A stretch of DNA of 64,000 bases from Rhodoferax sp. OV413 (GCA_943330915.2 CALQJO020000006.1:4925-68924); one strand, 5' to 3'; numbered from the stretch's first letter, positions 55,214 to 60,239 are shown. Translations and numbers: made by a program. The notes: generated by a model from the letters alone, not told the origin.

Positions 55214-57541
55214 ATGACATTGATGTTTGATCAGATAGCTGAAGAAATTGCTGCACGCCCCGATCAAGTTGCCGCGACCGTTGCCATGCTCGATGACGGC
55301 GCTACCGTGCCCTTCATCGCCCGTTATCGTAAAGAGGTCACCGGAGGGCTGGACGATATTCAACTTCGTAAACTTCAGGAACGCTTGCTGTACCTGCGTG
55401 AACTGGATGACAGACGCGATGCCATCATCAAGAGTATTGCCGAACAGCAAAAGTTAACACCGGAATTGGAAGCACAATTGCGCGCTGCCTCCACAAAAAC
55501 AACACTTGAAGACCTCTACTTGCCCTATAAACCCAAACGCCGCACCCGCGCCCAGATTGCCCGCGAAGCGGGTCTGCAACCACTTGCTGATGCTTTGTTC
55601 GCGAATCCTGCGCTTGATCCGGAGCAGGAGGCTGTTGCTTTTGTTAATAGTGAGTTGGGCGTTGCGGATGTCAAAGCAGCATTGGAAGGCGCGCGATATA
55701 TTCTCATAGAACAGTTTGGTGAAGATGCAACTTTGCTGGGGCGATTGCGTGATTATTTCTGGAACAGTGCACACCTGATGTCGGAACTGATTGCCGGCAA
55801 AGAACAGGAAGGTGCCAAGTATCGCGATTATTTCGAGTTCTCCGAAGCGGTTACCAAAATTCCGTCGCATCGCACAATGGCACTGTTCCGTGCGCGTAAT
55901 GAAGGCATTCTGAATTTAAAAATCGATATTCCAGTCAATCCCGATGCAGCGCCTGTCAAACATCCCTGTGAAGCGATGATTGCCAACCATTGGTTGATCA
56001 GGGAGCAGGGACGTGCGGCTGACAGCTGGCTGCAGGACGTGGTGCGCTGGACGTGGCGGGTCAAGGTGCATAGCCACCTGCAGACCGACTTTCTGACCGA
56101 GCTGCGCGATCAGGCTGAAACTGACGCGATCGAGGTGTTTGCCCGCAATATCAAGGATCTCCTGCTGGCTGCTCCCGCGGGTAAAAAAGTCACCATCGGT
56201 CTGGATCCGGGACTGCGAACAGGAGTCAAGGTAGCCGTGGTCGACGAGACCGGCAAGGTGCTGGATCACCACGCTATTTTTCCGAATGCCCCGCAAAACA
56301 AAATAGAAGAAGCGGCACTGGTGCTGAAAAAACTTTGTGAGAAATACAATGCACAGTTGATCAGTATTGGAAATGGCACGGCATCGCGTGAAACCGACAG
56401 TTTTGTCGGACAATTCTGCAAAGCCTTCCCGCAGTTCAAGGTAAAAAAAGTGATTGTGAATGAATCCGGTGCTTCTGTTTATTCAGCCTCGGAGTTTGCA
56501 TCACAGGAATTGCCGGATCTGGATGTGACTATTCGAGGCGCGGTTTCCATTGCGCGGCGTTTGCAGGACCCTCTGGCTGAATTGGTAAAAATCGAACCCA
56601 AGTCAATCGGCGTGGGGCAGTACCAGCATGATGTCAGTCAAGTCAAACTGTCACGCTCGCTGGACGCTGTGGTCGAGGATTGTGTCAACGCAGTGGGCGT
56701 GGATATCAATACTGCATCTGCACCCTTGTTAAAACGCGTCTCGGGTTTAACACAGACGCTGGTGAATAATATTCTGGAATTTCGTGACAAAAATGGTCAG
56801 TTCCGCACCCGTGAACAGCTGAAAAAAGTGCCGCGTTTTGGCGACAAAACCTTTGAACTGGCTGCCGGTTTTTTACGCGTGCAGGAAAGCGAGAACCCGC
56901 TGGATGCATCAGCGGTACATCCGGAATCTTATGCCTTGGTGGAAGAAATTGCCCAACGTCACGGACGTAACGTCAAATCACTGATCGGTGATGGAGCATT
57001 TGTGCGCAGTCTGAAAGCCAAAGATTACATCAGTGAAAAATATGGTCTGCCAACCGTGCAGGATATTCTGCGTGAGCTTGAAAAACCCGGGCGCGACCCG
57101 CGTGGTGAATTTGTCACCGCGGAGTTAAAAGAAGGTGTGGAAGAGCTGAAGGATCTGGTGCCCGGAATGACGCTGGAAGGCACAGTCACCAACGTGACCA
57201 ATTTTGGCGCATTTGTGGATATTGGTGTGCATCAGGACGGTTTGGTGCACATCTCTGCCTTGTCGGAGAAATTTGTCAAAGATCCGCATGAGGTGGTGAA
57301 GGCTGGGCAAATTGTCAAAGTCAAAGTGTTGGAGGTAGATCGCGAGCGCAAGCGTATTGCGTTGACCATGCGCTTGTCTGATCCATTACCAGGCGAGGGC
57401 GCCCCCAAGGCTGATCGTCCGGCGCCGACCACGGCGGAATCAAGCAAGCGTAAAAAGGATTTTGATGCGGCGGCGCAGAACAAGCGGTCGGCGGGGACAA
57501 TGGCTTCGTTGTTTGAGCAGGCGCTTAAGAATAAAAAGTAG
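55214..57541 (+). CDS. tex: Tex family RNA-binding transcription accessory protein (YqgF/RNase H-like + S1)
   Basis: [44 protein letters not shown]-terminal S1 domain ([20 protein letters not shown]). Confidence 0.97.
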
Positions 57542-57608
57542 TTTGATTGAGTTGAGCTTAATGATACTGAGCTAGATGAATGGGTTCAGCGCGATCAGAC
57601 GATTGGCC

Positions 57609-57789
57609 GCACCGGGCGCCGGGGTGAGACGCGGACCGGTCGCATCCTCTGTGCAAGCGACCGGTGCTGCGCAACTCAACTTCGCGGCCTTGCCGCTCAG
57701 GATTCGGACATTGCTCGCACTTTTCCGGTCGCTTGCACAGAGGATAAGCGCGACCTGATCGGTCCGCATCTCACCCCGGCACCCGGTGC
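57609..57789 (-). repeat. Long imperfect palindromic element, copy 1 (181 bp)
   Basis: 29-bp outer stem, 5-nt bulge, 6-bp stem, 4-nt bulge, perfect 21-bp inner stem, about 60-nt loop; both outer-stem mismatches are G-U on the minus strand. Confidence 0.9.
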
Positions 57790-57834
57790 TCTCTATTCAG
57801 ACTGTATCGCTTGGATTAATAAGTCGTATTTGGC

Positions 57835-57864
57835 TGCCAGTGCCAGTGCCAGTGCCAGTGCCAG
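57835..57864 (+). repeat. (TGCCAG)5 hexamer microsatellite
   Basis: Five perfect tandem copies between the two palindromic elements. Confidence 0.95.
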
Positions 57865-57881
57865 ACGCGACCCATGCAAGA

Positions 57882-58064
57882 GCACCGACGGGGTTGTAAC
57901 AGGTCAGACCAATCAGGCCACGTTTATCCATGCACTGTTCACCGGAAAAAACGCGAGCACTGTTCGACTTCGCAAGGCGCGCAGCGCCTGAGGAGGAGTT
58001 GCGCAGCGTCCGGTGAGCGGTGAATGGATGTGGCCGGTCTGACCTGTTACAACCCCGCCGGTGC
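57882..58064 (+). repeat. Long imperfect palindromic element, copy 2 (183 bp), inverted relative to copy 1
   Basis: Same 29-bp / bulge / 6-bp / bulge / 20-21-bp architecture; shares loop motifs GCGAGCA.TGT.CGA and GAGTTGCGCAGC with the reverse complement of copy 1. Confidence 0.9.
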
Positions 58065-58112
58065 GGGTTAATGTGACAGCACGTGCACGTGTGTACATCA
58101 CCACATCACCCA

Positions 58113-60239
58113 TCAAAAACGATATCGCAACCCCACATCCATACTGCGCTCCGGGCCAATATAAATACCCTGACGCAAGCTGGCGATGTAGTGCTTGTCA
58201 GCAAGGTTTTTTACGTTGGCATTCACAGTCAGCTGATCATTGACGGCGTACACCACAAAAATGTCTGTCAGCGTATAAGACGGCACCTGACCGGTAAAAA
58301 ATCCTGTGATGCTTTCGGTCAGCGGCGTGACGTTTAATACATCGGTGTACTGATCACTGGAGTAGTGCATGCTGATGCCTGTGCGCAGATTGCCTCGCTC
58401 GTACTCCAGCGTCAGATTGGCCGTCAGCTCTGGCGTATAAGGTATGCGGTTGCCATCAGGCGTTGCTATCGCGCCGGCGCGTGTCACACGGTCTCCACGG
58501 AACTCAGCGTCAGAGACATACGTCGCATTGGCGTTCAGATTAAAACCTGCGCCCAGATCAACACCTGTACCGAACTCCAATCCCTGATGCAATGTTTGGC
58601 CTCCATTGGTCACCTGAAATTGAGAGTTGCTGTTGGCCGGAATAATCTGGTTGTCAAAGTTCATCCGGAACCAGGCAAATTCATAAGTCATGTGCTGGTT
58701 AGCGCCGCGTATACCAAGCTCCATGTTCAGCGACCGCTCGGCGTCCAGCTGCTGATCCTGCAGACCATTCAGTGCATCACCGTTTAATGACGGCGAGAAT
58801 GCTTTGTATACGCTTCCAAACAGTTGTGCCTGGGGATTGATCTGCCAGCTCATGCCGATACCGGGCATCACTTCACTGTTAGTGGTGCCGGCGGAATTAC
58901 CTTGTGCGTCATGGCGTCGGCGGTCCAACCGGTATTGCTCGTACTGTTCAACGCGCAAACCTGCGGTTAAGGCCAGTGTTTCGGTGAGCAGGAATCGGTT
59001 CTGAGCGTACAGTGCATAACTTTCTGCACTGTCCAGGGCGTCTCTGCCCAGTGGCCCGGAGCGCGGCAATGCCCGGGTCGCCTGCACCGTTTTATCATCC
59101 ATTTCCTCATCCATGTAGCGCAGGCCGATCTCTGTTTCACTGGTCAGCGCAAACAATTGATGCTCGACATGCAGGCGGGTGTCTATGCCAAATCGCTTAA
59201 AAGCCCGGTTGTTGCCGTTGAGTGTATCGTTGTAGACCCAGCGGCTGGCGGCTGCTGACGCAGCGTTATTGGTGTTAAATCGCCAGTAGTCACGGAACAT
59301 ATCACTGCCAAACACCAAGGTATTCAATCGCGCGGTGGCACTGATATCCCACTCATGGTTCAGGTCAAGAGAACGGCGTTCGGTCAGGTAATAATCATCG
59401 GGTGCCGGATTATTGCTGGCCTCGTCAAGGTACTCCTGCAGAAAGTGACCACGGTAAGAAATATTGGCATCGCTGGCATAGTCCGAGTACTTGATACTGA
59501 CACGCTGATTGTTGCCAATCGCCATGCCGGCCTTGATCATGATATCGGTCGTGTCGTAACCCTTATTGAGAAAGCCATCACTGCTGACCTGACTGGCGAT
59601 GATGCCAAAGCTGGCATCGCCGGAGTCTGAGCTGGCGCCCGCTTCCACAGTGGCTTCGCGGGTATCCCATGTGCCGGTACGCAAGGTAACTTCCACAGCG
59701 TCACGCGGCTGTTTGGTGACATAGTTGATAACGCCGCCAATGGTGCTGGGGCCATAGCGCAGGGACGCCGCGCCTTTGAGCACTTCAATGCCTTCCATGC
59801 GCTGAATACGGGGGTTGTAGTAACGACCGTTGCCAACAAACAGACCCGGAGCCACCGGAACGCCATCCTCAAGAATCAGTGTTTTGTAGTCGCCTGAGCT
59901 AAGGCCGCGCATACCAATGTTGGCAACAATAGCGCTCTCTTCCTCAGGTTTGATGGTGATGCCGGGCACATTGCGCAGCGCTTCTTCTGTTGAGCGTGGC
60001 TGCCGCAGAATCAGTTCTTCCAACTGAACCAGCGACACTGCGCCGGGCTGGCGGGAGACATCTGCGGGATTATTGCCAACAACCAGGATCGTAGGCAGTC
60101 GTAAACCTTCTGTCTCTTCCTGTGCCATCAGCGCGCCGGAATACGGCAGCATGACTGAGGCGCCCAGCAGGGCCATGGCGTTGGCCAGTGCACGACGTTT
60201 GCTGATGCCTGAGAAGACAGATGATAGGGTGTGTTGCAT
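58113..60239 (-). CDS. TonB-dependent outer-membrane receptor, FecA-like
   Basis: Signal peptide, TonB box-like LPTILVVG, plug motifs (LEDGVP, IEVLKGAASLRYGP.TIGGVINYVT), NVKNL.DK.Y, terminal Phe. Confidence 0.95.
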   Translation of the reverse strand: MQHTLSSVFSGISKRRALANAMALLGASVMLPYSGALMAQEETEGLRLPTILVVGNNPADVSRQPGAVSLVQLEELILRQPRSTEEALRNVPGITIKPEEESAIVANIGMRGLSSGDYKTLILEDGVPVAPGLFVGNGRYYNPRIQRMEGIEVLKGAASLRYGPSTIGGVINYVTKQPRDAVEVTLRTGTWDTREATVEAGASSDSGDASFGIIASQVSSDGFLNKGYDTTDIMIKAGMAIGNNQRVSIKYSDYASDANISYRGHFLQEYLDEASNNPAPDDYYLTERRSLDLNHEWDISATARLNTLVFGSDMFRDYWRFNTNNAASAAASRWVYNDTLNGNNRAFKRFGIDTRLHVEHQLFALTSETEIGLRYMDEEMDDKTVQATRALPRSGPLGRDALDSAESYALYAQNRFLLTETLALTAGLRVEQYEQYRLDRRRHDAQGNSAGTTNSEVMPGIGMSWQINPQAQLFGSVYKAFSPSLNGDALNGLQDQQLDAERSLNMELGIRGANQHMTYEFAWFRMNFDNQIIPANSNSQFQVTNGGQTLHQGLEFGTGVDLGAGFNLNANATYVSDAEFRGDRVTRAGAIATPDGNRIPYTPELTANLTLEYERGNLRTGISMHYSSDQYTDVLNVTPLTESITGFFTGQVPSYTLTDIFVVYAVNDQLTVNANVKNLADKHYIASLRQGIYIGPERSMDVGLRYRF

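Follow-up and report, generated by a model that had tools for sequence, protein, structure and literature searches.

The analysed stretch comprises 64,000 nt of DNA deposited as Rhodoferax sp. OV413 (GCA_943330915.2, CALQJO020000006.1:4925-68924; in the following "the window", with positions counted from its first letter), in which two large hairpins lie back to back between positions 57609 and 58064. They are located between tex (55214-57541, plus strand), whose product revealed the Pfam domains Tex_N, Tex central, YqgF, HHH, and S1, and a gene for a TonB-dependent receptor (58113-60239, minus strand) with Plug and beta-barrel domains. The two genes are convergent and leave a gap of 571 nt between the tex stop at 57541 and the end of the receptor gene at 58113. 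An earlier note, made from the sequence of this stretch alone, had described two hairpins of about 182 nt in opposite orientation in this gap, and a repeat search recovered their arms, namely 57609-57641/57757-57789 and 57644-57664/57725-57745 for copy 1 and 57882-57910/58036-58064 and 57926-57946/58009-58029 for copy 2. Both copies share one fold on the strand that carries the motifs, with energies of -142.2 (copy 1) and -123.9 kcal/mol (copy 2) and z values of -14.5 and -12.7, respectively, while none of 200 shuffled sequences folded as well. A covariance model scored them at 118.8 and 123.4 bits, and neither this model nor motif searches revealed a third copy in the window.

Copy 1 (57609..57789, 181 nt) is read on the minus strand and copy 2 (57882..58064, 183 nt) on the plus strand, and a spacer of 92 nt (57790..57881), unconserved between loci, separates the two 5' ends in a head-to-head arrangement. 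Read from its 5' end, copy 1 starts with an outer stem of 29 bp (57789-57761/57637-57609), followed by the 5-nt bulge GAUCA (57760-57756), a 6-bp stem (57755-57750/57643-57638), the 4-nt bulge GCUU (57749-57746), and an inner stem of 21 bp (57745-57725/57664-57644). Copy 2 is built in the same way, with an outer stem of 29 bp (57882-57910/58036-58064), the 5-nt bulge AAUCA (57911-57915), a 6-bp stem (57916-57921/58030-58035), the 4-nt bulge GUUU (57922-57925), and an inner stem of 21 bp (57926-57946/58009-58029). This rod architecture agrees with the earlier note, which had placed a loop of about 60 nt at its end. The length of this region was correct (60-62 nt), while instead of an open loop it forms a stack of two internal loops, short helices, and a variable end hairpin. 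In copy 1, this apical core (57665..57724) consists of the linker AAAAGU, GCGAGCAAUGUCCGA (57718-57704), a closing A-U pair, the tip hairpin GCGGC-AAG-GCCGC, and GAGUUGCGCAGC (57677-57666); in copy 2 (57947..58008), it consists of the linker AAAAAC, GCGAGCACUGUUCGA (57953-57967), a closing C-G pair, the tip hairpin GGCGC-GCA-GCGCC, and again GAGUUGCGCAGC (57996-58007). Thus, the common motifs and the two distinct 5-bp triloop hairpins were found as described, and the sequence common to both copies is restricted to the junction, bulge, and apical motifs. Each rod is adjoined by a conserved 5' leader of 4 nt on its motif strand (GAGA in copy 1, AAGA in copy 2). The 3' tail of copy 1 is the conserved GGCC (57605..57608, minus strand), and that of copy 2 is GGGU (58065..58068, plus strand), which is GGCC in its orthologs at loci L123, L125, and L126 (further loci of the family are designated by L and a number).

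Across the family, each element is a rod of about 150-190 nt with two bulges on the 5' arm only, and in every case inspected the core is located at the tip of a long hairpin with copy-specific stems. The core can be written as N-G-C [G A] G-S-A [C U G U Y Y G A] R - variable hairpin - Y [G A G U] U-S'-C [G C A] G-C-N', leading from a helix via a G.A/A.G internal loop with a bulged C, a 3-bp helix, and a CUGUYYGA/GAGU internal loop to the variable hairpin. Judged from these letters, both internal loops may close with tandem G.A pairs. About 27 nt of the core are nearly invariant from Proteobacteria to Coriobacteriia, Firmicutes, the Candidate Phyla Radiation (CPR), and Spirochaetota, a conservation that partly reflects ascertainment by exact-pattern scans, which does not affect the covarying positions and the stems. 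Tip loops were triloops in 211 of 323 copies, and C-GNA-G was present in at least 155, i.e., about half of all copies, while no GNRA or UUCG tetraloop was found at the tip of any of the 323. The oligonucleotide d(GCGNAGC), of the same type as the C-GNA-G tip, is the classic extra-stable DNA mini-hairpin.

For a covariation test, 49 rods were aligned on a hand-set structure, with 500 shuffles and slid partners as controls. Paired cells amounted to 89.0% compared to 62.0% in the shuffles, cells changed on both sides to 636 compared to 206, and the covariation score to 0.622 compared to 0.158 in the shuffles, none of which (0/500) reached the observed value, and 0.09-0.20 with slid partners. In the outer stem, 12 of 12 pairs were changed on both sides, each with three or four Watson-Crick pair types. 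Covariation extends to the core helices. In 323 distinct cores, the N-N' pair was GC in 193, UA in 47, CG in 46, and AU in 17 (303 Watson-Crick pairs), and the R-Y pair was formed in 315. The S-S' pair was G-C in 163 and C-G in 160 cores and never mismatched, a count that is partly biased since both main search patterns required the matched combination. One strand is evidently selected, since G.U pairs and single A.C mismatches should be equally frequent if neither strand mattered, while 177 G.U and only 26 A.C were counted in 104 non-redundant rods. The motif strand was also more stable than its complement in 87 of these 104 rods with RNA parameters (p ~1e-12) and in 89 with DNA parameters (p ~1e-14). 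Both the maintenance of pairing despite stem divergence and the strand-specific selection, which the earlier note had read from the two window copies, therefore hold for the family. Its comparison of one motif with a tRNA T-loop stands as a resemblance only: ARAGORN found no tRNA gene, no T-stem closes UGUYYGA, and the two Y positions of this stretch are free to vary (UC, CU, UU, or CC among the 323 copies). The window type (type A) and the Halieaceae type share an identical rod form; Gallionellaceae, Thiobacillus, and Burkholderiales have a shorter rod inside a unit of about 330 nt (the Gallionella-type or type C unit), and Nitrospira has a form of its own. One copy (L030, 6911-7026) harbors an internal direct duplication of 22 nt of the 3' core (CGCGAAGGTCGAGTTGCGCAGC, twice).

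The search of related genomes proposed in the earlier note revealed many further copies, in related as well as unrelated hosts. Scans used exact core patterns, and the locus totals are lower bounds. With one genome per species, the pattern GCGAGCAMTGTYCGA-N20-45-GAGTTGCGCAGC resulted in at least 118 loci in Pseudohongiella-like bacteria, Halieaceae, other Cellvibrionales, Gallionellaceae, Thiobacillus, Sulfuricella, Burkholderiales, Thauera, and Nitrospira. A variant with one core pair flipped (GAGGA...UUCCGC) revealed at least 120 more loci and added Methylophilaceae, Rhodocyclales, and Marinobacterium, and, according to the fallible taxonomy labels of metagenome-assembled genomes (MAGs), Coriobacteriia/Eggerthellaceae, Atopobiaceae, Firmicutes, three CPR lineages, Spirochaetota, Gastranaerophilales, Myxococcota, Phycisphaerae, and Bdellovibrionales. 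A metagenome scan with the core pattern yielded 7 loci. In one Pseudohongiella-like metagenome genome, 4 pattern loci were found in about 440 kb, and local runs reached up to 3 copies per 5 kb. Altogether, the family is multi-copy, intergenic, and patchy across phyla. The G+C content of the stems tracks that of the host, as in the A+U-rich stems of a CPR contig (46% G+C) that also bears a 23S rRNA gene; this host-like composition argues against simple bin contamination, though some MAG labels are clearly wrong. Elements were also seen on contigs L059, L127, L183 (CAMBPO01), and L209 (CAMDLH01), with the MAG labels Klebsiella pneumoniae and Bordetella parapertussis. The label of CAMBPO01 is almost certainly wrong because tex of L127 and L183 is 98-99% identical to that of the window.

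The earlier note could not assign the hairpins to a named family. In line with this, Rfam 15 revealed no match at gathering score for the window and 31 loci of all types, and weak E-value matches (mir-263, SNORA21, VA RNA) were considered chance. The core strings were absent from the searchable literature, string and keyword searches resulting only in unrelated primers and general papers. A description of these extragenic palindromic elements was not found; the family is set apart by its size, by stems that are free in sequence under selection for pairing, and by a core conserved across phyla.

A nearly strict rule governs the arrangement of neighboring copies. Among cores within 700 nt of each other, the order (-,+) occurred 40 times and (+,-) once, with 5' ends facing each other and 3' ends pointing outward. 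The 3' tail, which is GGCC in Pseudohongiella and GGTTG in a Halieaceae doublet, recurs in inverted form at the two outer ends and is therefore element-borne; GGCC was rejected as a target-site duplication on the basis of this inversion and its lineage specificity. Doublet spacers range from 30 to 240 nt, are unconserved, often contain tandem repeats, and revealed no conserved element. Based on gene calls by a simple longest-ORF (open reading frame) heuristic, 10 doublets are located between convergent, 12 between tandem, and 1 between divergent genes, while single copies were convergent in 43, sense-tandem in 24, antisense-tandem in 35, and divergent in 15 cases, without a preferred orientation toward the genes. 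Elements are enriched between convergent genes. Type A copies whose gene context was examined are mostly flanked by housekeeping genes.

In Gallionellaceae and relatives, (-,+) pairs bracket 0.9-3.5 kb with one or two genes, all of them different. The bracketed genes encode, e.g., a DUF4238 protein, a KilA-N/BstA-like protein, an McrBC pair, a protein with a weak HEPN match, an 8xMP membrane protein, and several proteins without family. Single cassettes of anti-phage type are represented by the McrBC pair in L244 (2222-4977), the KilA-N/BstA-like gene in L027 (941-1732), and the DUF4238 gene in L071 (381-1349). L071 and L094 represent the same chromosomal site downstream of hemH, where the cargo differs. 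Among about 45 Gallionellaceae hemH loci, three harbor a filled doublet, each with a different cargo, and the rest have no intact element, at least L314 and L317 retaining degraded remnants. A second variable site adjoins another shared gene. The Gallionella unit itself is a mosaic of a GTAG-headed hairpin resembling repetitive extragenic palindromic (REP) sequences, the rod, one further hairpin whose tip is GCGAAGC, and a terminator-like hairpin with a T run. GTAG-headed hairpins flank such units just past the hemH stop in L308, L309, and L316 and at 1505-1530 in L033, e.g., GTAGGTTGGGTTAGCG...CGCTAACCCAAC and GTAGGGTGGGCA...TGCCCACC, and make up another repeat family within these mosaics; one such hairpin in L309 includes the stop codon of hemH. 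The only transposase seen between the members of a doublet belongs to an IS4-family insertion sequence (IS; DDE_Tnp_1) in the spacer of L227 (1940-3445). Since this insertion sequence is equipped with inverted repeats of its own (about 25-47 nt), it was rejected as an autonomous partner.

The tex locus allowed us to follow a doublet among relatives. Tex of the window is 98% identical to Tex of two MAGs, indicating a Pseudohongiella-like gammaproteobacterial affinity, and relatives with Tex identities as low as 74% have the doublet at the corresponding locus. A full doublet is located downstream of tex in the window, L119, L120, L125, and L128 (Tex 74%). In L126, only the plus copy is intact and the minus copy is a remnant; L121 retains only the minus and L123 only the plus copy; both copies are internally deleted in L124, one deletion remnant is left in L127, and none in L122. 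From these states we conclude that the doublet is old and that single copies are products of its decay. Presence at orthologous tex loci, which the earlier note had proposed to compare, thus varies, while a clean empty site did not emerge: L122, the candidate, was rejected since it retains TGCGGCCAC and fits a deletion between TGCNGCCA microhomologies. The plus copy of the window differs from that of L119 at 4 of 183 nt, compared to 90% identity over the last 1200 nt of tex. Relative to L123, five pairs were changed on both sides and none was broken, at a tex identity of 82%. Orthologous copies thus change less than the adjacent tex, which indicates purifying selection on pairing and core and led us to reject the idea of fast-evolving stems. 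In L014 and L026, syntenic housekeeping regions carry elements in the same three intergenic gaps, and at one gap the surviving copies of the two genomes point in opposite directions, in line with the loss of a different doublet member from each.

Conserved structure, strand asymmetry, wide distribution, the doublet rule, the bracketing of cargo, and purifying selection are established by these results. Selection on single-stranded structure, for which the earlier note had suggested either a mobile element of REP/HUH type or a non-coding RNA, is supported, and the evidence leans to DNA. Free gene orientation, the lack of promoters, long perfect helices, and GNA tips favor folded DNA with moderate confidence. 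We place about even confidence in an element comparable to REP sequences, REPINs (REP doublets forming hairpins), and bacterial interspersed mosaic elements (BIMEs), the active form of which is a folded single strand, with DNA being more probable than RNA. Such a strand would be of one polarity, and the rod would be acted upon by a structure-specific DNA enzyme supplied in trans, either of the HUH/Y1-transposase type known from REP/REPIN systems or a hairpin-recognizing recombinase as for attC sites. The core and the one-sided bulges would serve recognition and strand choice, and doublets with outward 3' ends may be the spreading unit, able to carry genes. The window harbors a cargo-less doublet that has been located downstream of tex since before the Pseudohongiellaceae diverged and stays foldable, presumably because such copies are also of use to the host as transcript-end or insulator hairpins.

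By our comparison, arrangement and behavior are closest to REP/REPIN and BIME-type systems, while the sequence features that define each known system are missing. Like REPs and REPINs with their Y1 HUH transposases (REP-associated tyrosine transposases, RAYTs), the elements are extragenic and multi-copy, fold as single strands with strand-specific wobble pairs, seem to have an inverted doublet as replicating unit, and have conserved resident copies mostly at gene 3' ends; inverted doublets predominate by 40 to 1 and persist at tex across Pseudohongiellaceae. In contrast, REPs measure 20-40 nt and have a GTAG-type head, while the units described here comprise 150-190 nt (180-183 nt in the window) with a GAGA/AAGA leader, two one-sided bulges, and a core shared across phyla instead of lineage-specific sequences, and no RAYT gene was found near about 240 loci. 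BIMEs of E. coli, RIMEs (Rhizobium-specific intergenic mosaic elements) of rhizobia, and NIMEs (Neisseria intergenic mosaic elements) likewise alternate palindromic units in orientation with variable linkers, and the Gallionellaceae rod is embedded in a BIME-type mosaic with GTAG-headed hairpins and a terminator. However, there is no sequence relationship to these, the units are far larger, the core crosses phyla, and doublets bracket cargo. Miniature inverted-repeat transposable elements (MITEs), mobile insertion cassettes (MICs), and pdif modules are similarly non-autonomous, with inverted end modules that carry passenger genes and with 'empty' forms. Unlike in these, neither a target-site duplication nor a parent IS or a dif-like site was found, and the ends are whole rods with the most conserved part inside instead of inverted repeats of 15-40 bp; only about 7-9 terminal nt are semi-conserved (GCAYCGG...CCGRTGC), and no clean empty site was seen. 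ERIC/IRU (enterobacterial repetitive intergenic consensus/intergenic repeat units) and Correia elements are also imperfect intergenic palindromes of 100-150 nt, co-transcribed with their neighbors and moved by an unknown agent, but each is confined to one lineage, conserved over its full length, and devoid of a covarying free stem with an invariant tip. Palindrome-associated elements derived from IS200/IS605 (PATEs) differ in that here one rod spans the whole element without distinct left- and right-end hairpins. In L123, (T/G)TGC precedes both junctions, but the corresponding 'empty' site is a deletion product.

Several observations weigh against a mobile DNA element of this kind. Neither a target-site duplication nor clean excision was found, and resident copies are conserved beyond the needs of a purely selfish element. 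When the flanking ORFs from about 240 loci of 8 kb (3,429 and 3,028 in two sets) were clustered all against all, no recurrent transposase, recombinase, or reverse-transcriptase gene emerged, the clusters consisting only of a spurious ORF through the element and syntenic housekeeping genes. The transposase neighbor (RAYT/HUH) suggested in the earlier note was thus not found, in a test that is weak because REP-type families usually have one or few such genes per genome. Orientation relative to GC skew was 89 to 66 (p ~0.05-0.08), a weak and not significant bias, so that a clear replication-strand bias is missing. Vehicles of transfer were also poor in elements: the type C unit, the sole query used for plasmids (PLSDB), resulted in no match, and two core patterns gave 1 and 3 matches in IMG/VR. 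Furthermore, the type C unit carries its terminator-like hairpin and T run on the motif strand at the 3' end, the core has the appearance of an RNA module for tertiary contacts or protein binding, and elements occur in metatranscriptome contigs at a depth above that of the neighboring gene.

The last three points lead to the strongest alternative, which we consider possible but less probable: a structured RNA module transcribed by read-through or from cargo genes, whose core would be a tertiary or protein-binding, processing, or self-cleavage site and which might define, stabilize, or insulate transcript ends. Covariation and tolerance of G.U pairs suit RNA as well as single-stranded DNA, tandem G.A motifs and the UNNGA stretch of the core are typical of RNA modules, and purifying selection on resident copies is likewise consistent with this explanation. 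In metatranscriptomes, the unique part of copy 1 reached a depth of 34-38 compared to 5-18 for tex. One RNA unitig (run X26, depth 10.8) extends from 57661 to 57703 and then directly into the Illumina adapter, which indicates a discrete end at 57703/57704, between GUCCGA and AUCC inside the core of copy 1. However, this RNA evidence consists of assembler contigs, which are strandless. A closed cycle of 119 nt (depth 34-38), in which the core and 3' half of copy 1 (window positions 57619-57721) are followed by a 16-nt linker (CGGCGAACCGGCCGCA), was also present in four lake metatranscriptomes and in none of four DNA metagenomes from other studies. The simplest explanation is that the strain concerned carries a partial copy in tandem, and the cycle might possibly represent a circular or concatemeric molecule. 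Half-hairpin RNA coverage was rejected as a sign of processing, being inconsistent between the copies and confounded by strain differences and de Bruijn contigs. Gene orientation also argues against an RNA module, as 35 of the 59 tandem-context copies are antisense and both convergent window genes would transcribe the antisense strand first. No sigma-70-like promoter was found for either window copy, promoters are not conserved, and doublet spacers, unconserved and down to about 30 nt, leave no room for them. Finally, functional RNAs do not usually contain perfect helices as long as 21-29 bp, and the tips are GNA triloops of DNA type, not GNRA or UNCG loops.

It seems quite unlikely that the rods are generic hairpins, i.e., bidirectional terminators or 3'-end stabilizers whose motifs have no further meaning. 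Their location mostly downstream of genes, convergent or tandem, and the fact that both strands fold would be in agreement with such a role, but no T run follows the window rods, a scan of 57450-58200 revealed no terminator-like site (only the Gallionella-type unit carries an intrinsic terminator at its 3' end), and a plain terminator would need neither a near-invariant core of about 27 nt nor strand asymmetry.

We regard it as very unlikely that the rods are attC-like sites recombined by an integron- or Xer-type tyrosine recombinase, with doublets delimiting cassettes like pdif modules, for which inverted flanking sites are also the rule. The one-sided bulges do recall the asymmetric extrahelical bases of attC, which also functions as a folded strand with structure kept and stem sequence free, and doublets bracket single orphan or defense genes, known from integron cassettes as well, that differ between strains at the same site. 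Nevertheless, the elements have no R''/R' core sites (RYYYAAC/GTTRRRY) and no dif-like sequence, and their conserved part is located at the tip and not at the base. They occur as inverted doublets or scattered singles and not in direct arrays beside intI, type A copies stand mostly between housekeeping genes, and no recombinase gene was found near the about 240 loci. A single local inverted duplication or chance palindrome, suggested by the mere two copies in the 64-kb window, is refuted by the hundreds of copies elsewhere and by the doublet at the same locus down to 74% Tex identity.

A bolder proposal, which we put forward as doubtful, is that the invariant two-loop core constitutes a new functional nucleic-acid module shared across phyla, either a recognition or cleavage site for cassette exchange or a new small self-cleaving or processing RNA motif. 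The latter version is hinted at by the end at 57703/57704 and the 119-nt cycle in four metatranscriptomes. The former would imply a hitherto unrecognized system, independent of host range, that moves or exchanges genes, including anti-phage genes, bracketed by inverted rods. Conservation of the core across distant phyla implies a widely shared partner, be it an enzyme or a cellular machine, and finding this partner is now tractable. Together with the swapped McrBC, BstA-like, and orphan genes, the doublet rule suggests a possible new route for the shuffling of defense genes. If indeed undescribed, the family would be among the most widely distributed structured non-coding elements missing from catalogs. 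The covariance model could also help to mask element-derived spurious ORFs in protein databases, if any are present there.

Such ORFs arise readily, as translation through the elements results in long reading frames, e.g., in L033 (1474-2250) and L264 (5645-7546), with deduced sequences such as ...FFGYF...KKV... and ...SEFRS..., and ORFs spanning the element formed the largest cluster in both clusterings of flanking ORFs. In a limited test of stems as phage-targeting guides or spacers, two stem sequences had no exact match in IMG/VR. Upstream of panC in L033 (1830-1883), about 50 nt matched many metatranscriptome contigs with about 90% identity and high depth, often preceded by ...CUGAUGAAAC; an abundant RNA or some other repeat was probably matched by chance. 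The spacer of the window doublet contains a (TGCCAG)5 microsatellite (57835-57864), the repeat number of which varies among relatives, with about 2 units in L120, none in L119, and TGCAGCCAG at this position in L123. Since this repeat is generic, its k-mers reach a very high depth in metagenomes. The orthologous spacer of L119 (7560-7680), whose genome is 98% related, contains three repeats of a unit of about 33 nt (ATTCAGACTGCATCGCTCAAATCGAAGAGTCAC), indicating that doublet spacers accumulate tandem repeats.

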